A model generated the notes under the pieces. It was not told where the DNA came from and made no database searches. It saw only the letters and a program-made list of their open reading frames with translations. From the NCBI RefSeq assembly GCF_003334355.1, contig NZ_QOWP01000014.1: a stretch of DNA of 64,000 bases; one strand, given 5' to 3'. This stretch comes from Escherichia coli (GTDB lineage Bacteria > Pseudomonadota > Gammaproteobacteria > Enterobacterales > Enterobacteriaceae). How positions within the stretch are numbered: the stretch's first letter is position 1; each line of letters opens with the position of its first letter. Made by a program: the position numbers and the translations under genes. Positions 4,296 to 56,356 of this stretch are shown one piece after another.

Positions 4296-4512
4296 CTGAT
4301 GCCGCACGTAGGCCTGATAAGACGCGGGCAGCGTCGCATCAGGCATCTTGTGCAAATGTCGGATGCGGCGTGAACGCCTTATCTGACCTACAAAAACAAA
4401 TTTATCAATGAGTTATAAATCCCTGTAGGCCTGATAAGACGCGCCAGCGTCGCATCAGGCATCGTGTGCGAATGTCAGATGCGGCGAAAACGCCTTATCT
4501 GACATACACACG
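4296..4512. repeat. REP/BIME cluster (two REP-pair units) between convergent yacG and mutT
   Basis: Two copies of the motif ggcctgataagacgcg..cagcgtcgcatcaggc and two copies of gatgcggcg..aacgccttatctgac in inverted arrangement; classic enterobacterial REP palindromes. Confidence 0.9.
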
Positions 4513-4904: not shown

Positions 4905-4935
4905 TATAAAAAAGGCGCAGAATCCTGCGCCTTTT
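4905..4935 (-). terminator. Hairpin with flanking A/T tracts between secA stop and mutT start (attenuator/terminator-like)
   Basis: ggcgcag-aatc-ctgcgcc stem-loop flanked by A-run on one side and T-run on the other; sits in the 59-bp secA-mutT spacer. Confidence 0.5.
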
Positions 4936-4952
4936 ACTTTAACAGTTAGCTT

Positions 4953-7658
4953 TTATTGCAGGCGGCCATGGCACTGCTTGTATTTTTTACCAGAACCGCA
5001 CGGGCAAGGATCGTTACGTCCTACTTTGCGCTCTCCAGTTTGCGCCGCCAGTGCAGCTGCGGCTGCAGAGTCGTCATCCTGATGGCTAAGCTGCTGCATT
5101 TGCGCTAAACGCTCGGCTTCCATACGACGCTGTTGTTCCAGCTCCTCAACCTCTTCAGGCATACGTACCTGGACTTTGCTCAACGTGCTGATAACTTCAT
5201 ATTTTAACGACTCCAGCATCGCTGCAAACATGGAGAACGATTCACGTTTGTATTCCTGCTTCGGATCTTTCTGTGCGTAGCCACGCAGGTGGATACCCTG
5301 ACGCAGATAGTCCATCGCTGCCAGGTGCTCTTTCCACAGGGAGTCAAGCGTTTGCAGCATGACGCCTTTCTCGAAGTGACGCATCATCTCAGCACCAACC
5401 ACTTCTTCTTTACGCTGATACACTTCGATGGACTGCGCCAGAATTCGCTCACGCAGCGTCTCTTCATGCAGTTCTGGTTCTTTATCCAGCCACTCGGCAA
5501 TTGGCAAATCGAGGTCGAAATCGTTCTTCAGACGTTCCTGCAGCCCCGGAATATCCCACATTTCTTCCAGCGACTGTGGTGGAATGTAGGCATCAATGGT
5601 CGCTTTGAACACATCTTCACGAATGCTGTTAATGGTTTCGCTCACATCGCTGACATCCAACAGTTCGTTACGCTGGGAGTAAATGGCGCGACGCTGATCG
5701 TTAGCCACGTCATCATATTCCAGCAGTTGCTTACGAATGTCGAAGTTACGGCTTTCAACTTTACGCTGGGCGTTGGCAATCGCTTTAGTCACCCACGGGT
5801 GTTCAATGGCTTCGCCTGGCTTCATACCCAGTTTACGCATCATGCCGGATACTCGGTCGGAAGCAAAAATACGCATCAGCGCATCTTCCATCGACAGGTA
5901 GAAACGGGAAGAACCAGCATCCCCCTGACGACCAGAACGACCGCGCAACTGGTTATCGATACGACGGGATTCGTGACGCTCGGTACCGATGATATGCAGG
6001 CCACCTGCTTCCAGTACCGCATCGTGACGTACCTGCCAGTCGGCTTTAATTTTTTCAATTTGCTCTGCGGTCGGATTTTCCAGCGCGGCAACTTCTGCCT
6101 GCCAGCTACCACCGAGCACAATATCTGTACCACGACCCGCCATATTGGTCGCGATAGTCACCGCAGCCGGATAACCTGCCTGAGCAACAATCGCCGCTTC
6201 GTTGGCGTGGAATTTGGCGTTCAGGACGTTGTGCTTAATACCGGCTTTGGTCAGTTCGTTTGACACCAGCTCCGATTTTTCGATGGAGATAGTACCCACC
6301 AGCACCGGCTGGCCTTTCGCAGTACGTTCTTTGATATCTTCAATGATCGCCTGAATTTTTTCCGCTTCAGTCATGTAGACCAGGTCCGGCAGATCTTTAC
6401 GAATCATTGGACGGTTGGTCGGAACAACGACGGTATCCAGCTTGTAGATTGAGCTAAATTCGAAAGCTTCGGTATCAGCAGTACCGGTCATCCCCGCCAG
6501 TTTTTCATACAGACGGAAGTAGTTCTGGAAGGTGATCGAAGCCAGCGTTTGGTTTTCGTTCTGGATCTGCACACCTTCTTTCGCTTCCACAGCCTGGTGC
6601 AGACCATCGGACCAGCGACGGCCCTGCATGGTACGACCGGTGTGTTCGTCAACGATGATAACTTCACCATCTTTAACGATGTAGTCGACGTCACGGGTAA
6701 ACAGCGCATGAGCGCGCAGCGCCGCCGTTACGTGGTGCATCAGCATGATGTTGGCCGGAGAGTACAGAGACTCCCCTTCATCCATGATGCCCTCTTTCAC
6801 CAGCAGTTCTTCAATCAGCACCAGACCACGTTCGGTCAGGTTCACCTGGCGAGATTTTTCGTCCACCGAGAAGTGGCCTTCGCCCTGGAAGGTTTCGGAG
6901 TCTTCTTTTTCCTGACGGATCAGGTGCGGAATAATTTTATTCACGCGTTTATACATTTCCGAGCTGTCTTCTGCCGGGCCGGAAATGATCAGCGGTGTAC
7001 GCGCTTCATCGATCAGGATGGAGTCCACTTCGTCCACCAGCGCATAGTGCAGTTTACGCTGTACACGTTCTTCAGGGCTGAACGCCATGTTGTCGCGCAG
7101 GTAGTCAAAGCCGTATTCGTTGTTCGTACCGTAAGTGATGTCAGCTGCGTAAGCTTCGCGCTTTGCCGGTGCTGGCATGCCCGGCAGGTTGATACCGACA
7201 GTCAGGCCAAGGAATTCAAACAGCGGACGGTTGTTTTCGGCGTCACGTTGCGCCAGGTAGTCGTTGACGGTAACTACGTGCACGCCTTTACCGGTTAGTG
7301 CGTTCAGGTAAGCAGGCAGCGTTGCGGTCAGGGTTTTACCTTCACCGGTACGCATTTCGGCGATGCAGCGTTCGTTAAGAACCATACCGCCGAGTAACTG
7401 AACGTCGAAGTGACGCATACCAAAGACGCGCTTACTTGCCTCACGTACCACGGCGAAAGCTTCCGGGATCAGATTTTCCAGCACTTCGCCTTTTTCCAGA
7501 CGTGCACGAAACTCTGCGGTTTTCCCTTTCAGTTCTTCGTCGGAGAGTTTTTCCATCTCCGGTTCCATGGCATTGATGATGTTGACCACTTTGCGCATCC
7601 GGCGCAGGGTGCGATCGTTACGACTACCGAAAACTTTAGTTAATAATTTGATTAGCAT
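4953..7658 (-). CDS. secA: Preprotein translocase ATPase SecA
   Basis: 901-aa ORF; DEAD-like motor motifs and C-terminal zinc-binding tail [14 protein letters not shown]. Confidence 0.98.
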
Positions 7659-9480: not shown

Positions 9481-10632
9481 TTAATCAGCTTGCTTACGCA
9501 GGAATGCTGGAATATCCAGATAATCCGGCTCTTTCGCAGTTTGCGGCGCATTGTCATTCACGACTTTAGCAATCGGCTTCTGCTCCTGGGTCAGCGGAGC
9601 CATCCCGTGCTGCTGGTAGCGATCCATCACTGGCTGCTGAACCTGCTTATTGGTCACCAGAGTGATTTCAGGACGTTTGTCCATGCCGATACCTGTCGCA
9701 ACAACAGTTACGCGCAGCTCGTCATTCATATCCGGGTCAAGAGAAGTACCGATAACCACGGTCGCGTTGTCGGAAGCAAATGCACGGATGGTGTTACCTA
9801 CCGTTTCGAACTCATCCAGACGCAGGTCGAAGCCCGCTGTGATGTTAACCAGCACGCCGCGTGCGCCAGACAGGTCGATATCTTCCAGCAGCGGAGAAGA
9901 GATAGCCATTTCAGCAGCTTCTTCCGCACGGTCTTCACCGCTCGCCACGCCAGAACCCATCATTGCGTAGCCCATTTCAGACATTACGGTGCGTACGTCT
10001 GCAAAGTCCACGTTCATCAAACCCGGACGAGTAATCAGTTCAGCGATACCTTGCACAGCGCCTTTCAGTACATCGTTCGCTGCGCCAAACGCATCCAGCA
10101 GGGAGATACCGCGGCCCAGAACTTTCAGCAGTTTGTCGTTCGGGATAGTGATCAGAGAGTCCACATGCTTGGACAGTTCAGTGATCCCCTGCTCCGCGAA
10201 TGCCATACGCTTCTTGCCTTCAAAGTTGAAAGGCTTAGTGACGACAGCAACGGTCAGGATACCCAAATCTTTTGCCACTTCAGCGACGACTGGTGCTGCA
10301 CCTGTACCGGTACCACCACCCATACCCGCAGCAATAAAGACCATGTCTGCACCTTCCAGCGCAGCACGCAATGCATCGCGATCCTCATCAGCCGCATTGC
10401 GGCCAACTTCTGGATTAGCGCCAGCGCCCAGTCCTTTGGTGATACCGCTACCGATTTGAATCGTCTGTCCAACCGCTGTTTTACGCAGCGCTTGTGCATC
10501 GGTATTTACCGCGAAGAATTCAACACCTTCAATGCGCTCACGCACCATGTGTTCAACAGCATTACCGCCGCCGCCGCCGACGCCGATGACTTTAATCACC
10601 GCGTCATTGGTAAGTTCCATTGGTTCAAACAT
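9481..10632 (-). CDS. ftsZ: Cell division GTPase FtsZ
   Basis: 383-aa ORF; tubulin signature GGGTGTG. Confidence 0.98.
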
Positions 10633-10692
10633 AGTTTCTCTCCGATTTGTGCCTGTCGCCTGAGGCCGTAATCATCGTCGGCCTCATAAAAA

Positions 10693-11955
10693 TTAAAACT
10701 CTTTTCGCAGCCAACTATTGAGTCGCTTGATCCACGAGCCAACTGATGCTGTAACACGTTTTTCTACTTCAGCTTCACCGTTAAGATGTGACTCTTTCCC
10801 ATAGTGAAGCAATCCCACCGCCGTCGAATAATACGGCTCCTGAGCATAATCCGTTAAACCGGTAATGTTCAGCGGCGCGCCGATACGCACTTGCGTATGA
10901 AACACGCGCTGAGCACAGGCTGCAAGACCTTCGATCTGCGCTGCGCCACCGGTTAATACAATGCCTGCCGCCAGGTGATGTTTAACCCCTTGTTGGCGAA
11001 GCTTTTCCTGCAACTGCAATATCTCTTCGTTGACCAGGTTGAGCAGCTCGGTATAGCGCGGCTCGATCACCTCTGCCAGGGTCTGACGTTGCAGACTCCG
11101 CGGCGGACGACCACCTACGCTCGGCACTTCCACGCTCTCATCTTTTCCAACGATGGAACCCAGCGCACAACCGTGGCGAACTTTAATCGCTTCGGCGTCG
11201 CTTGGCGGCGTGCCAAAGGCGTAAGCGATATCACTGGTCACGACATTGCCAGCATAAGGAATTACCTTAGTGTGGCGCAATGCCCCACCGGTATAAACGG
11301 CGATATCCATTGTACCACCACCGATATCGACGACGCAGACACCCAGTTCACGTTCATCTTCCGTCAATACCGAATAACTTGATGCCAGTCCGGCAAATAT
11401 CAGTTGGTCAACTTTCAGCCCACAACGTTCAACCGCTTTGACGATGTTTTTCGCCATATCGTTGTGACATGTGATCAGGTGCACTTTTGCCTGCATCCGC
11501 ACGCCCGAAAGTCCTACCGGATTCTTGATCCCTTCCTGATAGTCAATCGCATACTCTTGCGGGATCACATGCAGCACACGATGCTCATCGCGCACACGCA
11601 CCGATTTCGCGGTGTGGACGACGTTTTCCACATCTTCTTGCGTTACTTCTTCTTCAGAAATAGGCACCATACCAATTTCATTCTGGCAGCTGATGTGCTT
11701 ACCAGAAAGCGCCAGATATACCGAAGAGATCTGACAATCTGCCATCAATTCTGCCTGGTCAATGGCGCGTTGTACGCACTTGACCACGGATTCGAGGTCG
11801 TTCACCCCGCCTTTATCCATACCACGCGACGGGCAGCTGCCCACGCCAATGATATTGACCATACCGTCGGGCAGAACTTCCCCTACTAAAGCGGCAACCT
11901 TCGCGGTACCAATCTCCAGTCCTACTACCAGTTTTCTGTCCGTCGCCTTGATCAT
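10693..11955 (-). CDS. ftsA: Cell division protein FtsA (actin-like ATPase)
   Basis: 420-aa ORF; actin/Hsp70 fold motifs; 4-nt overlap with ftsQ. Confidence 0.98.
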
Positions 11956-32060: not shown

Positions 32061-32228
32061 TAGTTAAGCAGAAATTAATATCGCTTACTTTAACCACCGC
32101 AGCACAATTAGCTAATTTTACGGATGCAGAACTCACGCTGGCGGGACGTTTTTATTGCGTCAGGGTTGACATCCGTTTTTGTATCCAGTAACTCTAAAAG
32201 CATATCGCATTCATCTGGAGCTGATTTA

Positions 32229-32315
32229 ATGACTCACATCGTTCGCTTTATCGGTCTACTACTACTAAACGCATCTTCTTTGCGCGGTAGACGAGTGAGC
32301 GGCATCCAGCATTAA
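32229..32315 (+). CDS. leuL: leu operon leader peptide
   Basis: 28-codon [31 protein letters not shown] with four consecutive CUA Leu codons; followed by attenuator hairpin. Confidence 0.9.
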
Positions 32316-32338
32316 GCCAGCACGCAGTCAAACAAAAA

Positions 32339-32365
32339 ACCCGCGCCATTGCGCGGGTTTTTTTA
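32339..32365 (+). terminator. leu attenuator (intrinsic terminator)
   Basis: acccgcgc-catt-gcgcgggt stem-loop followed by 7 T, 24 nt after leuL stop and 43 nt before leuA. Confidence 0.9.
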
Positions 32366-35072: not shown

Positions 35073-37089
<2,017 letters not shown>

Positions 37090-37096
37090 TCCCCTT

Positions 37097-37119
37097 GCCC
37101 GGTCAAATGACCGGGCTTT
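37097..37119 (+). terminator. leu operon terminator hairpin, shared with convergent setA
   Basis: gcccggtc-aaat-gaccgggc followed by ttt, 8 nt after leuD stop. Confidence 0.7.
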
Positions 37120-37137: not shown

Positions 37138-38316
37138 TCAAATGTCTTTAACCTTTGCGGTTAAAAATAATGCGACAACAGAAATAACCGCAATTATCCA
37201 GTAGACAGCAAAGTGCCCCCAACTTTGTGCAATTGCTCCCTGAATAACGCCAGCCAGAATTACCCCGGTAGAAATACTGTTAGTAAATAAGGTGGTAGCT
37301 GCCCCCGCTCTTCCAGGCATTAAATCCTGAAACCATAGCATCCCAATACCCGCAACAATGCCGATAAATACAGCGTTAAAAAGTTGCAGCGTCATCAACG
37401 CCAGACGGCTATGAAATAAAATCAATCCGGTGTAAAACAGTACTCCTGCCGCCACTGCTATGACCATCATTCGCCGCTTACCATAACGTTTGACATAGTA
37501 GCCAGCCAGAATCATTGCTGGTATTTCCAGTCCAGCTGCCGTCCCCATCAGGAAACCCGCCAGTTTGTCTGGCAATCCTAACTCGCTACTGATCCACAAC
37601 GGCATATCAATAATGTACATGGTGTTGCAGGTCCACATTAACGTCGAGGCGACAAATAACATCCGTACGTTACTATCCTGCCAGCCACCTTGCATTGATA
37701 AAGCATTTTCCGACGGCAGTTCTACCCGCGCCACAGACGGAAGCATAAATGCAATCAATACCAGACTGAGTGTGAATATCCCGGCGGCAATCGAAAACAT
37801 CACCGTAAAGCCGTAATTCAACGCCAGCATAAAGGCCAACGGTGGACCGATAACCCATGCCAGAGAAAGCTGCGCACGCATCACCGAGCTAAACATCACC
37901 ACTTCTCGCGCCGAGTTATCCGCATATTCCCGCGCCAGAGCAAATAACTGTGGCATTGCCGTATTGGCCAGAGATGCCAGAAGCACACCACAGGTGATAA
38001 GCGTCAGATAATGACGATTAAATGCAAACAATAGCGCATTGCCGATAGCCATCAAACAGCAAAATATAATCAGTTTTCGCCGATCGCCCTGACTGTCAGA
38101 ACGTTTTGCCAACCAGAGGCTTACGCCGATCCCAGCAATAGCATTCACCGTATAAAAGAGTCCGATCCAGAAAGGTTGCGCGCCAACCTCACGACTCAGA
38201 AATAAGCTCAATGTAGGAGCCTGTAGCGCCCCGGCCACCCCCATCATAAAAGCGACCAGCATAAATGCCGCGTAAACACCGTTCATACGGCGAGCCATCG
38301 TCATTATCCAGATCAT
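37138..38316 (-). CDS. setA: Sugar efflux transporter SetA (MFS)
   Basis: 392-aa ORF; 12-TM MFS-like hydrophobic profile; position between leuD and sgrS. Confidence 0.93.
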   Translation of the reverse strand: MIWIMTMARRMNGVYAAFMLVAFMMGVAGALQAPTLSLFLSREVGAQPFWIGLFYTVNAIAGIGVSLWLAKRSDSQGDRRKLIIFCCLMAIGNALLFAFNRHYLTLITCGVLLASLANTAMPQLFALAREYADNSAREVVMFSSVMRAQLSLAWVIGPPLAFMLALNYGFTVMFSIAAGIFTLSLVLIAFMLPSVARVELPSENALSMQGGWQDSNVRMLFVASTLMWTCNTMYIIDMPLWISSELGLPDKLAGFLMGTAAGLEIPAMILAGYYVKRYGKRRMMVIAVAAGVLFYTGLILFHSRLALMTLQLFNAVFIGIVAGIGMLWFQDLMPGRAGAATTLFTNSISTGVILAGVIQGAIAQSWGHFAVYWIIAVISVVALFLTAKVKDI

Positions 38317-38343
38317 ACGTTCCCTTTTTAGCGCGGCGAGAAT

Positions 38344-38570
38344 AAAAAAAACCAGCAGGTATAATCTGCTGGCGGGTGATTTTACACCAATACTCAGTCA
38401 CACATGATGCAGGCAAGTCAACTTTCAGAATTGCGGTCATCCCACTGCATCAGTCCTTCAAGCATGGTTAATCGTTGTGGGACGCTTAACCAACGCAACC
38501 AGCACAACTTCGCTGTCGCGGTAAAATAGTGCTGATAAAACTGACGCATGGGGCACCTCCTTGCTTCATC
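38344..38570 (-). ncRNA. sgrS: Dual-function small RNA SgrS (glucose-phosphate stress)
   Basis: Reverse strand shows the SgrS 3' region ...gcatcatgtgtgactgagtattggtgtaaaatcacccgccagcagattatacctgctggtttttttt (ptsG-pairing segment plus terminator); contains sgrT ORF; divergent from sgrR; 5' end approximate. Confidence 0.88.
38418..38549 (-). CDS. sgrT: Small protein SgrT (glucose transport inhibitor) encoded within SgrS
   Basis: 43-codon ORF MRQFYQHYFTATAKLCWLRWLSVPQRLTMLEGLMQWDDRNSES inside the sgrS transcript. Confidence 0.85.
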   Translation of the reverse strand: MRQFYQHYFTATAKLCWLRWLSVPQRLTMLEGLMQWDDRNSES

Positions 38571-38637
38571 GTTAGGAATTATTGACTTAATATAGGGAAA
38601 ATAAAATTGCTGTCTTTTGCGCAGGAGTTCCCCTTTT

Positions 38638-40293
38638 ATGCCATCTGCTCGTCTGCAACAACAGTTCATCCGCCTGTGGCAATGCTGCGAGGGTAAATCG
38701 CAGGACACAACGCTCAACGAACTGGCAGCGTTATTGAGCTGCTCGCGTCGTCATATGCGTACCCTGCTCAACACCATGCAGGATCGCGGCTGGCTGACGT
38801 GGGAAGCGGAAGTCGGGCGCGGTAAACGCTCGCGTCTGACATTCCTCTATACCGGGCTGGCGCTTCAGCAACAGCGGGCGGAAGACCTGCTGGAGCAGGA
38901 TCGTATCGACCAACTAGTACAGTTGGTTGGCGACAAAGCGACTGTGCGGCAAATGCTGGTTTCTCATCTGGGCCGCAGCTTCCGCCAGGGGCGGCACATC
39001 CTGCGCGTGCTCTACTATCGTCCGTTGCGTAATCTGCTACCTGGCAGCGCATTGCGCCGTTCCGAAACCCATATTGCCCGGCAAATCTTCAGTTCGCTAA
39101 CGCGCATAAATGAGGAAAATGGGGAACTGGAAGCAGACATCGCCCACCACTGGCAGCAAATATCACCGCTTCACTGGCGTTTCTTTTTGCGTCCAGGAGT
39201 CCATTTTCATCATGGTCGTGAACTGGAAATGGACGACGTGATCGCCTCTTTAAAACGAATCAATACGCTGCCGCTCTATTCGCATATTGCTGACATTGTG
39301 TCGCCGACGCCCTGGACGCTGGATATCCATCTCACGCAACCGGACCGCTGGTTACCGTTATTGCTGGGGCAAGTTCCGGCGATGATCCTGCCGCGCGAAT
39401 GGGAAACCCTCAGTAACTTTGCCAGCCATCCCATCGGCACCGGTCCGTATGCGGTGATCCGCAACAGCACCAATCAACTGAAAATTCAGGCATTCGATGA
39501 CTTCTTCGGTTACCGGGCATTAATCGACGAAGTTAACGTCTGGGTTCTGCCGGAAATTGCCGACGAGCCAGCCGGAGGTCTGATGCTAAAAGGTCCACAG
39601 GGCGAGGAAAAAGAGATTGAAAGCCGCCTGGAGGAAGGTTGCTACTATTTACTATTCGACAGCCGCACCCATCGCGGGGCGAATCAGCAAGTCAGGGACT
39701 GGGTAAGCTATGTGCTTTCTCCAACTAATCTGGTCTATTTCGCTGAGGAACAGTACCAGCAACTGTGGTTCCCGGCTTATGGACTGCTCCCCCGTTGGCA
39801 CCATGCCCGCACCATAAAGAGCGAAAAACCGGCTGGTCTGGAAAGCCTCACCCTAACCTTTTATCAGGATCACAGTGAGCATCGGGTGATTGCCGGGATC
39901 ATGCAGCAGATTCTGGCAAGTCACCAGGTCACGCTGGAAATCAAAGAGATCGACTACGATCAGTGGCATACAGGAGAGATCGAAAGTGATATCTGGCTAA
40001 ACAGCGCCAACTTTACCCTGCCGCTGGACTTCTCTGTTTTCGCACATTTATGCGAAGTGCCACTGCTACAACATTGCATTCCCATTGACTGGCAAGCCGA
40101 CGCTGCTCGCTGGCGCAATGGCGAGATGAATCTGGCGAACTGGTGCCAGCAACTGGTCGCCAGCAAAGCGATGGTGCCATTATTGCACCACTGGCTGATC
40201 ATTCAGGGGCAACGCAGTATGCGCGGCCTGCGCATGAACACCCTCGGCTGGTTCGATTTTAAATCAGCGTGGTTTGCGCCACCGGATCCATGA
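38638..40293 (+). CDS. sgrR: Transcriptional regulator SgrR (HTH + solute-binding-protein-like domain)
   Basis: 551 aa from internal ATG ([15 protein letters not shown]...); track ORF has 7 extra N-terminal codons. Confidence 0.94.
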
Positions 40294-40321: not shown

Positions 40322-40420
40322 TAACGCCGTTCTCAACGGGGTGCCACGCAAACGCGTGCGCTGAGAAAATACCCGTCGAACCTGATCCGGATAACGCCGG
40401 CGAAGGGATTTGAGGCTCCT
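40322..40420 (+). promoter_or_regulatory. sroA: TPP riboswitch (THI element; sroA) in thiBPQ leader
   Basis: Conserved THI-box core ggggtgcc...gctgagaaaatacccgtcgaacctgatccggataacgccggcgaagggatttg about 40 nt upstream of thiB start. Confidence 0.88.
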
Positions 40421-40456
40421 TCTCAAGTCCTTTGCCACTCTTTTTTGAGGTGCAAA

Positions 40457-41440
40457 GTGTTAAAAAAATGTCTGCCCCTGCTGTTGCTGTGCACAGCGCC
40501 CGTTTTCGCTAAACCCGTTCTGACTGTTTATACCTACGATTCCTTCGCCGCCGACTGGGGGCCTGGTCCGGTGGTTAAAAAAGCCTTTGAAGCCGACTGT
40601 AATTGCGAACTGAAACTGGTGGCGCTGGAAGATGGCGTTTCGCTTCTCAACCGTCTACGGATGGAAGGCAAAAACAGCAAAGCCGATGTAGTTCTGGGGC
40701 TGGATAACAACCTGTTAGACGCCGCCAGTAAAACCGGACTGTTTGCCAAAAGCGGCGTGGCAGCGGATGCCATTAACGTTCCCGGCGGCTGGAATAATGA
40801 CACTTTCGTACCGTTTGATTACGGCTACTTCGCCTTCGTCTACGACAAGAACAAACTGAAAAACCCGCCCCAAAGCCTGAAAGAGCTGGTTGAGAGCGAT
40901 CAAAACTGGCGAGTGATTTATCAGGATCCGCGCACCAGTACGCCGGGGCTGGGTCTGCTGTTGTGGATGCAAAAAGTCTATGGCGATGACACCCCGCAGG
41001 CCTGGCAGAAACTGGCGAAGAAAACTGTCACCGTCACCAAAGGCTGGAGCGAAGCCTACGGCCTGTTTTTAAAAGGTGAAAGCGATCTGGTACTGAGTTA
41101 CACCACCTCTCCGGCTTATCACATTCTCGAAGAGAAAAAAGATAACTACGCCGCCGCGAACTTTAGCGAAGGTCACTATCTGCAGGTGGAAGTCGCCGCC
41201 CGCACCGCTGCCAGCAAGCAGCCGGAGCTGGCGCAAAAATTTCTCCAGTTTATGGTTTCTCCGGCTTTCCAGAATGCGATCCCAACCGGCAACTGGATGT
41301 ATCCGGTGGCAAATGTCACGCTGCCTGCCGGGTTTGAACAATTGACCAAACCAGCAACCACGCTGGAGTTCACGCCAGCCGAAGTGGCGGCACAACGTCA
41401 GGCATGGATTAGCGAATGGCAACGCGCCGTCAGCCGTTAA
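40457..41440 (+). CDS. thiB: Thiamine ABC transporter periplasmic binding protein
   Basis: 327 aa from GTG (MLKKCLPLLLLCTAPVFA signal peptide); track ORF starts 4 codons earlier at TTG; exact start uncertain. Confidence 0.92.
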   Translation: MLKKCLPLLLLCTAPVFAKPVLTVYTYDSFAADWGPGPVVKKAFEADCNCELKLVALEDGVSLLNRLRMEGKNSKADVVLGLDNNLLDAASKTGLFAKSGVAADAINVPGGWNNDTFVPFDYGYFAFVYDKNKLKNPPQSLKELVESDQNWRVIYQDPRTSTPGLGLLLWMQKVYGDDTPQAWQKLAKKTVTVTKGWSEAYGLFLKGESDLVLSYTTSPAYHILEEKKDNYAAANFSEGHYLQVEVAARTAASKQPELAQKFLQFMVSPAFQNAIPTGNWMYPVANVTLPAGFEQLTKPATTLEFTPAEVAAQRQAWISEWQRAVSR

Positions 41441-43026
41441 TTCCCGGCTGGTTAATTCCAGGTGTAAGCGCCGCCACGCTGGTGGTAGCGGTTGCGCTCG
41501 CGGCGTTTCTCGCCCTGTGGTGGAACGCGCCGCAGGGTAACTGGGTGGCAATCTGGCAGGACAGCTACCTGTGGCATGTGGTGCGCTTCTCCTTCTGGCA
41601 GGCGTTTCTCTCGGCGCTGCTCTCTGTCGTACCCGCGATATTCCTCGCCCGCGCACTCTATCGCAGGCGCTTTCCGGGTCGGCTGGCGCTGTTGCGTCTG
41701 TGCGCAATGACCTTGATCCTCCCGGTGCTGGTTGCTGTTTTCGGCATTCTTAGCGTCTATGGTCGTCAGGGCTGGCTGGCATCGCTCTGCCAATCGCTCG
41801 GTCTGGAGTGGACCTTTTCGCCCTACGGCCTGCAAGGTATTTTGCTGGCGCACGTATTTTTTAATCTACCGATGGCGAGCCGCTTATTACTCCAGGCACT
41901 GGAAAACATTCCCGGCGAGCAACGTCAGCTTGCCGCCCAGCTTGGGATGCGCGGCTGGCATTTTTTCCGCTTCATCGAATGGCCGTGGCTACGGCGACAA
42001 ATCCCGCCGGTTGCCGCGCTTATCTTTATGCTCTGTTTCGCCAGCTTCGCCACCGTGCTGTCGCTGGGCGGCGGTCCGCAGGCAACCACTATCGAGCTGG
42101 CAATCTATCAGGCGCTGAGTTACGACTACGATCCTGCCCGCGCGGCGATGCTGGCGCTGATCCAGATGGTGTGTTGCCTCGGGTTGGTGCTGCTGAGTCA
42201 GCGATTGAGTAAGGCCATTGCGCCAGGCACCACGCTGCTGCAAGGCTGGCGCGACCCGGACGATCGTCTGCATAGCCGCATTTGCGACACGGTGTTAATT
42301 GTGCTGGCGCTGCTGCTGTTGCTGCCACCGTTGCTGGCGGTGATCGTCGATGGGCTAAATCGCCAGTTGCCGGAAGTGCTGGCACAACCGGTGCTGTGGC
42401 AGGCGCTGTGGACCTCGTTGCGTATTGCGCTGGCGGCAGGTGTATTGTGCGTAGTGCTGACCATGATGCTGCTATGGAGCAGTCGCGAACTTCGGGCGCG
42501 GCAGAAAATGCTGGCGGGTCAGGCGCTGGAGATGAGCGGCATGTTGATTCTCGCCATGCCGGGGATTGTGCTGGCTACCGGCTTCTTTTTACTGCTCAAC
42601 AACACCATTGGCCTGCCGCAATCTGCTGACGGCATTGTGATTTTCACCAATGCGTTAATGGCGATCCCTTATGCGCTGAAAGTACTGGAAAACCCGATGC
42701 GCGATATCACCGCCCGCTACAGTATGTTGTGTCAGTCGCTGGGCATTGAAGGCTGGTCGCGCTTAAAAGTGGTCGAGCTGCGCGCCCTGAAACGTCCACT
42801 GGCGCAGGCGCTGGCTTTTGCCTGCGTGCTGTCGATTGGTGATTTTGGCGTAGTGGCGTTGTTCGGTAACGATGATTTCCGTACCCTGCCGTTTTATCTC
42901 TACCAGCAAATTGGCTCCTATCGCAGCCAGGACGGTGCGGTCACCGCGTTAATTCTGCTACTACTCTGTTTTCTGCTGTTTACCGTGATTGAAAAACTAC
43001 CGGGGCGAAATGTTAAAACTGACTGA
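41416..43026 (+). CDS. thiP: Thiamine ABC transporter permease
   Basis: 536-aa ORF; duplicated ABC permease domains; 25-nt overlap with thiB. Confidence 0.95.
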
Positions 43027-49105: not shown

Positions 49106-49375
49106 GCCGCATCAGGTATGTAACGCCTGATGCGATGCTGGCGCGTCTTATCAGGCCTACACGTTGCGATTTTGTAGGCCGGATAAGCAAACCGCATCCG
49201 GCATTCAACGCCTGATGCGACGCTGGCGCGTCTTATCAGGCCTACGCGTTCCGATTTTGTAGGCCGGATAAGCAAAGCGCATCCGGCATTCAACGCCTGA
49301 TGCGACGCTGGCGCGTCTTATCAGGCCTACACGCTGCGATTTTGTAGGCCGGATAAGCAAAGCGCATCCGGCACG
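49106..49375. repeat. Tandem BIME array: three copies of an about 85-bp REP-containing unit between araA and araD
   Basis: Unit cgcctgatgcgacgctggcgcgtcttatcaggcctac..cgattttgtaggccggataagcaaagcgcatccggcattcaa repeats with 85-bp period (motif gcgcgtctta at 49141, 49226, 49311). Confidence 0.92.
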
Positions 49376-56261: not shown

Positions 56262-56356
56262 CGCAGTTCGGTAGGCGGATAAGGCGTTCACGCCGCATCC
56301 GGCAATTGTGCGCCGATTGCCTGATGCGACGCGGCCGCGTCTTATCAGGCCTACAG
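56262..56356. repeat. REP pair between convergent rluA and djlA
   Basis: gcggataaggcgttcacgccgcatccggca and gcctgatgcgacgcggccgcgtcttatcaggcctac REP motifs. Confidence 0.88.

Follow-up and report, generated by a model that had tools for sequence, protein, structure and literature searches.

Does the short stretch of DNA between setA and sgrR in this Escherichia coli genome encode a complete SgrS, that is, a small RNA that both pairs with target messengers and is translated into SgrT, and is the neighboring setA coupled to it as in K-12? The window analyzed here, a contiguous stretch of 64,000 nucleotides (64 kb), had been described in an earlier note, made from its letters alone, as carrying such a dual-function sgrS/sgrT locus at positions 38344-38570, with an intact pairing region and a strong terminator. 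The locus is almost certainly the E. coli glucose-phosphate stress module, composed of sgrR and of sgrS(sgrT)-setA, and working as in K-12. It is also already known: it is the textbook dual-function small RNA operon, one sgrS base off the K-12 reference, and the finding as first stated is a correct textbook identification which brings no new biology. The window is ordinary E. coli chromosome. The 4,957-nt stretch from leuD to thiB is 100% identical to E. coli PSS-12, in which the RefSeq annotation gives leuD, setA, sgrT, sgrR, the TPP riboswitch, and thiB.

The sgrS small RNA occupies 227 nt on the reverse strand (38344..38570). The comparison with Rfam RF00534 (SgrS) returned a full-length match at exactly the coordinates first proposed (230.7 bits, E 1.7e-65, model positions 1-232 of 232; the gathering score of the family is 37), and the same match was obtained when the whole 64-kb window was scanned (E 7e-65). 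The RNA is identical in 226 of 227 positions to the curated ncRNA sgrS of MG1655 (b4577) and the SgrT protein is identical to that of K-12, so the alignment with annotated SgrS and SgrT, which had been suggested as a check, confirms the assignment. As a structure, the 227-nt sequence folds better than all of 200 dinucleotide shuffles (z = -3.8).

The base-pairing (seed) region, delimited by a duplex test with ptsG, comprises SgrS nt 167-188 (38383..38404, reverse strand). The seed string itself, GTGTGACTGAGTATTGGTG, lies at 38385-38403 (-), corresponding to SgrS nt 168-186, and occurs a single time in the 64-kb window. Using the ptsG leader sequence of MG1655, the duplex formed by SgrS nt 167-188 and ptsG -29..-8 has a predicted energy of -27.8 kcal/mol, which none of 2000 shuffles of the SgrS segment matches (mean -11.5, best -22.3). 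This duplex holds an 8-bp core, CUGAGUAU:AUACUCAG, that adjoins the ptsG Shine-Dalgarno. The pairing region is therefore intact, as had been claimed, and complementary to the translation-initiation region of ptsG. In K-12, the mutations G176C and G178C, located in the same seed region, abolish regulation (PMC2760806), and SgrS nt 162-186 are conserved in 25 of 25 positions between the two E. coli alleles discussed below. Only the seed-sized test was kept. The pairing of full-length SgrS with the ptsG leader (RNAduplex) gave -59.3 kcal/mol in an unrealistic long-looped structure and was set aside, and that of SgrS nt 157-197 was marginal, with 2 of 300 shuffles as good.

On the other side of the sgrS promoter lies sgrR (38638..40293, forward strand), encoding the transcriptional activator of sgrS, an intact protein of 551 aa that reaches 1126.9 bits against the NCBIfam equivalog NF010149 (cut-off 476), has no internal stops, and differs from the K-12 protein by two amino acids. 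Its start at 38638 is separated from the 5′ end of SgrS by 67 bp, in agreement with the divergent arrangement noted earlier. The intergenic region between the two genes (38571..38637), in which conservation and the literature place the sgrS promoter and the SgrR-responsive sequences, has been described with regard to both its conservation and its role (PMC2760817). It differs from K-12 by one SNP, at position 38621, and the interval 38571-38640, which includes it, is identical to O157 in 70 of 70 positions. We infer that the sequence AATAAT at 38578-38583 is a -10-like element of sgrS. A simple promoter scan missed the known sgrS promoter; a weak -35 is to be expected in it, since the promoter is activator-dependent. 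The sole minus-strand match of the scan, AAGACA-16-TATATT at 38616..38589 (-), was not adopted, since transcription from it would begin about 10 nt before the 5′ end given by Rfam. Elsewhere, the K-12 derivative DH1Ec169 has an internal stop in sgrR (L002, 1278-2933), which its annotation gives as a pseudogene. O157:H7 carries espY2, encoding a T3SS effector, between sgrR and the TPP riboswitch of thiB (L003, 477-1046), an insertion absent from both the window and K-12.

Several other regulatory elements were recognized in the 64-kb window. The TPP riboswitch is found upstream of thiB (40327-40426, forward strand; 66.1 bits), where MG1655 annotates the small RNA SroA. The leader of the leucine operon (Rfam Leu_leader, 32215-32364, forward strand; 145.8 bits) precedes the leu operon, in which the ORFs of leuC and leuD were located at 35073-37089. 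Rfam PssrA ("plasmid-encoded Shigella sRNA A") is matched over its full length inside ftsA/ftsZ (10624-10713, reverse strand; 105.5 bits); the interpretation of this match as a strain-specific or plasmid-derived insertion was ruled out, these being core genes found in 5,425 of 5,426 E. coli genomes. The window also contains four matches to Rfam naRNA4 (CssrE) and one to STnc40; the coordinates for this group are 4311-4504 (-), 4908-4977 (-), 49262-49327 (+), and 56273-56351 (+).

The second function attributed to SgrS depends on sgrT. This coding sequence, of 43 aa plus the stop, extends over SgrS nt 22-153 (38418..38549, reverse strand), the same relative position as in RefSeq. The ORF begins with ATG at 38549, continues for 43 codons to a stop ending at 38418, and specifies the product MRQFYQHYFTATAKLCWLRWLSVPQRLTMLEGLMQWDDRNSES. 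Residues 3-37 match Pfam PF15894 (E 3.5e-13), a family which extends over several genera, while no match was obtained among the NCBIfam models. The reported 43-codon sgrT within the SgrS transcript is thus an intact ORF, and the frameshift named by the earlier note as a reason for doubt does not occur in the sequence. The dual-function assignment, meaning an SgrS RNA that contains an intact sgrT, is in this way supported at the level of the sequence. Other strains carry altered versions of the gene: in O157:H7 TT12B (L003, 3022-3153) sgrT has ATT instead of the ATG start, a change already published for O157 (PMC2760817), and in HS-02 (L004, 3022-3152) it is frameshifted.

The single base that separates the window from K-12/MG1655 falls in the region which governs sgrT. 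Just 5′ of the ATG at 38549 lies AAGGAGGUGCCCC, and the Shine-Dalgarno and 5′ inverted-repeat region, GGAGGUGCCCC, as located by alignment and fold, corresponds to SgrS nt 11-21 (38550..38560, reverse strand). At SgrS nt 13 (38558), the sole mismatch, the window has A and K-12 has G. A13 turns the sgrT Shine-Dalgarno into the consensus AGGAGG and breaks the GGGGGUGCCCC hairpin of K-12: according to the fold prediction the GGGG/CCCC stem is gone, and SgrS nt 1-35 fold with -6.7 kcal/mol in the window versus -12.4 kcal/mol in K-12. This 5′ hairpin represses SgrT production in K-12, and the hairpin-weakening mutants sgrS4 and sgrS5 (C19/C21 changed to U or A) have their SgrT activity restored (PMC2760806). 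The stem-loop was reported in 3 of 15 E. coli strains, most E. coli lacking it (Horler and Vanderpool, PMC2760817). In the larger sample of 5,400 complete E. coli genomes, 3,349 have a 65-nt 5′ region exactly as in the window, and 1,421 have the K-12 type. K-12 is hence atypical in this respect, since most E. coli, the window included, are devoid of the hairpin that silences sgrT. A more efficient SgrT synthesis is to be expected where A13 both disrupts the hairpin and provides a consensus AGGAGG, and SgrT translation from the window allele should exceed that of K-12.

One may argue, on the contrary, that SgrS is a purely base-pairing regulator in this strain and that sgrT, even if conserved, is effectively silent. 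This is what experiments in the native context suggested for K-12, where the base-pairing-deficient sgrS1 gave no growth rescue because the native ribosome-binding site yields little SgrT (PMC2760806). The natural sgrT-null alleles (the O157 ATT start and the HS-02 frameshift) point in the same direction, as their existence means that some lineages can do without sgrT. The window, however, lacks the repressing hairpin owing to A13, with the difference in folding energy given above, and its sgrT retains both the ATG and all 43 codons, preceded by a consensus Shine-Dalgarno. In addition, weakening of the hairpin by mutation raised SgrT activity in K-12 (PMC2760806), and the ORF fits a Pfam family found in several genera. 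On balance, we regard a silent sgrT as unlikely in this strain, and prefer to read the locus as encoding a dual-function RNA.

At its 3′ end, the dual-function RNA carries the elements expected for binding of Hfq. A small hairpin immediately 5′ of the terminator, formed by SgrS nt 183-196 (38375..38388, reverse strand) in both MFE and centroid folds, is a putative part of the Hfq-binding module, a role for which the literature has been summarized (PMC4021124). The Rho-independent terminator with its U8 tail (38344..38373, reverse strand) was recognized by the terminator scan, the folds, and the count of the U-run; its hairpin, at 38373..38351 (nt 198-220), has an 8-bp stem with five G-C pairs and a 7-nt loop, and is followed by U8. 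All the features of the Hfq module, namely hairpin, Rho-independent terminator, and U8 tail, are thus present as far as the sequence goes. The description of the terminator as strong holds in part: the hairpin and the U8 are there, but the strength is conditional, since read-through is frequent in unstressed cells and termination is enhanced under stress, when most transcripts terminate and give functional, Hfq-binding SgrS (PMC4509938).

In line with the earlier note, setA lies directly downstream on the same strand; its ATG is 27 nt beyond the 3′ end of SgrS. This gene (37138..38316, reverse strand), annotated in RefSeq, encodes a sugar efflux transporter of 392 aa which scores 601 bits against NCBIfam TIGR00899 (SET family sugar efflux transporter; cut-off 522.3) and 450 against the SetB equivalog, under the cut-off of 693, as expected for SetA; it differs from the K-12 protein by five amino acids. 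The 27-nt spacer (38317..38343, reverse strand), with a putative setA Shine-Dalgarno (AAAAAGGGAACGU-AUG), is identical to that of K-12, in which the initiation site of setA has been located 27 bp downstream of the sgrS terminator (Morita 2022, PMC9765468). The promoter scan gave no minus-strand promoter-like site in the spacer or just upstream of it. Co-transcription of sgrS and setA was reportedly described by Sun and Vanderpool in 2011. Their work is cited, and own data are added, by Morita 2015 (PMC4509938) and Morita 2022 (PMC9765468), and read-through in K-12 has been shown by Northern blot, lacZ fusion, and RNA-seq in these two papers. Read-through coupling to setA is expected in the window from its near-identity to K-12.

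The alternative is that setA is driven by a promoter of its own and that its place after sgrS is mere adjacency. SgrS ends in a canonical terminator (8-bp stem and U8), read-through under stress amounts to a few per cent of the transcripts (PMC4509938), and about 40% of E. coli genomes have no setA at this locus, all of which would fit an independent gene. Against this, the ATG of setA is just 27 nt from the SgrS 3′ end, and no promoter-like site was recognized on its strand within the spacer or shortly before it. Northern blots and lacZ fusions have, moreover, revealed a transcript spanning sgrS and setA and an induction of setA that depends on SgrR (PMC4021124, PMC4509938, PMC9765468); the tight spacing is kept in the Citrobacter freundii complex, where the distance from the seed to the ATG is +89, as in the window, and the gene order is kept in many genera. 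An own promoter is therefore quite improbable, and coupling of setA to sgrS by read-through is preferred. Beyond setA, a GC-rich hairpin (GCCCGGUCA-UUU-GACCGGGC) is located at 37097-37116, in the 48-nt gap between the stop codons of the convergent setA and leuD; it may be a terminator shared by these two genes, and was not called by the terminator scan because it has no T-run.

The mechanism by which these elements act together is established for the K-12 allele, one base off, and its application to the window follows from near-identity. Under sugar-phosphate stress, SgrR would activate the divergent sgrS promoter, and the 227-nt SgrS would bind Hfq via its 3′ hairpins and U8 tail. SgrS nt ~167-188 would then pair with the ribosome-binding region of ptsG, and also with other targets (manXYZ, yigL), so that translation would be blocked and mRNA decay triggered. 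In parallel, SgrS nt 22-153 would be translated into the 43-aa SgrT, inhibiting glucose uptake via PtsG. Transcripts passing the SgrS terminator would run 27 nt on into setA, and this read-through would place setA under the control of SgrR. For K-12, the dual function of SgrS and its pairing with ptsG are documented (PMC2760806, PMC4021124); together with Hfq it blocks ptsG translation and promotes decay of the mRNA, and manXYZ and yigL are regulated as well (PMC4021124).

The distribution of the RNA in the species was studied in 5,426 complete E. coli genomes, 5,400 of which contain an SgrS match and 26 of which gave none; three of the matches lie on plasmid-labelled records. The 227 nt of the window are 100% identical to those of E. 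coli 55989, 120899, and many other complete genomes. A reading of the sgrS of the window as a chance or decayed resemblance, or as what is left of a pseudogene, is refuted by the RF00534 score (E 1.7e-65, with complete coverage of the model), by the single substitution that separates it from the experimentally characterized K-12 RNA, and by this recurrence across genomes; nothing was found in favor of such a reading, and its probability is negligible.

The identity to the window is distributed in a bimodal fashion among the complete E. coli genomes: 3,238 have at least 99% identity, and 2,158 have 80-90%. The second class (O157, HS-02, CFT073-type) is without setA, and sgrS is then followed directly by leuD. 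The setA gene is present in 3,241 of the 5,426 genomes. A K-12-type SgrS 3′ end adjoins setA in 3,239 genomes (~60%), the window and K-12 included, and an O157-type 3′ end adjoins leuD in 2,144 (~40%); the sgrS allele and the presence of setA are therefore almost perfectly linked. The differences between the two haplotypes, which concern 37138-38440 (-) of the window, 3131-3266 of L003, and the loci L004, L007, L016, L017, L028, and L041, are very unevenly distributed. Identity is complete in the upstream region (70/70), 98% in SgrS nt 1-130, 55% in nt 131-161, complete again in the seed (nt 162-186, 25/25), 68% in nt 187-227, and 26% downstream. The breakpoint lies within sgrS at about nt 131, and the two haplotypes become homologous again from the stop codon of leuD; across the diverged block, only the 25-nt seed and the arms of the terminator stem have been kept. 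The comparison of the K-12 and CFT073/O157 sgrS alleles by Horler and Vanderpool in 2009 (PMC2760817) gave 88% identity and included a synteny figure marking setA. A literature search on the setA/sgrS-3′ dimorphism returned nothing that covers both setA and sgrS, which is not proof of novelty; the comparative papers of 2009 foreshadow in part both the predicted de-repression of sgrT by A13 and the dimorphism of the 3′ end that goes with setA.

A further indication comes from the divergence along the locus. Between the window and K-12, sgrS and setA (37138-38570) differ by 0.4-0.5%, whereas leuC, thiB, and thiP in the flanks (35344-36473, 40457-41570) differ by 2-4.6%, leuC and thiB accounting for values of 2-3%. 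So low a divergence inside more diverged flanks fits a recently shared segment. Outside E. coli, a scan for the seed pattern in one genome per species gave 47 loci, three of them chance matches in unrelated taxa; E. fergusonii and S. enterica subsp. enterica had no exact match to the pattern and are outside this species sample. The arrangement sgrR / sgrS-setA was found by the species scan in Citrobacter, Salmonella (arizonae, diarizonae), Klebsiella, Raoultella, Enterobacter, Siccibacter, Superficieibacter, and Pluralibacter, and in many of the sgrS-setA loci of other genera a convergent leuD follows setA. Several loci of the Citrobacter freundii complex, as well as Escherichia sp. MOD1-EC7003, share with the window the seed-to-setA distance of +89. 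This common spacing and the spread across genera of the Enterobacteriaceae mean that the coupling architecture is old and widespread.

The setA-less state, with the same junction, is also found in E. albertii, E. whittamii, Escherichia sp. E1V33, and the GTDB E. coli representative. The haplotypes of this kind are separated by species-level distances among themselves (87-93% identity to O157), E. coli and MOD1-EC7003 share 99-100% identity in the setA-bearing haplotype, and the two kinds are 53% identical to each other over the compared stretch. By eye, the SgrS 3′ end of the setA-less haplotype resembles that of Citrobacter, and the K-12 type that of Salmonella arizonae. A plain in-situ deletion of setA from the K-12-type haplotype was considered and rejected as insufficient, because the two haplotypes are so diverged and a deletion would leave this divergence unexplained. 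The reading that we favor, although we give it somewhat less than an even chance, is that the 3′ third of sgrS and setA form a cassette exchanged by recombination, the crossover falling near nt 131 of sgrS; it is a suggestion drawn from the sequences of few genomes. If the setA-less state were the one vertically inherited in Escherichia, the sgrS-setA operon of K-12 would be a horizontally re-acquired arrangement. Were this true, the output of the SgrR regulon would, together with the A13/G13 polymorphism, differ systematically between E. coli lineages. What has been concluded from K-12 on how much riboregulation, SgrT, and SetA each contribute may not transfer across the species, because most E. 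coli are without the hairpin and about 40% have neither the coupling to setA nor the K-12-type 3′ end, theirs being diverged.

Other dual-function small RNAs are known, such as RNAIII of Staphylococcus aureus and SR1/SR1P of Bacillus subtilis. These differ from SgrS in sequence, regulators, and targets, with no family relationship. Closer to the window are the SgrS homologues of Salmonella, Citrobacter, and Klebsiella, several of which have been shown to be dual-function (PMC2760806). They share with it the divergent sgrR, the conserved seed, and setA downstream, and differ in an SgrT of 40-50 aa and in a variable spacing between seed, terminator, and setA. Within E. coli, the CFT073/O157:H7-type allele resembles the window in the promoter (70/70), nt 1-130 (98%), the seed block (25/25), and the arms of the terminator stem. 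It is unlike the window in nt 131-161 (55%) and nt 187-227 (68%), in a tail of U6 instead of U8, in the absence of setA with sgrS abutting leuD, in a different SgrT C-terminus, and, for O157, in the ATT start. The allele of the 55989/SE11/HS type has been described as 99% identical to K-12 and without the 5′ stem-loop (PMC2760817); the window is 100% identical to 55989 over the 227 nt, with no sgrS difference detected. Finally, K-12 MG1655 (sgrS b4577, sgrT b4662, setA b0070, and the divergent sgrR b0069) has the same order, lengths, and spacing as the window: sgrS of 227 nt, sgrT at nt 22-153, and a 27-nt spacer before setA. The SgrT protein, the seed, the Hfq module, and the terminator are identical in both, and the differences are restricted to nt 13 (G in K-12, A in the window), the intergenic SNP at 38621, five amino acids in SetA, and two in SgrR.
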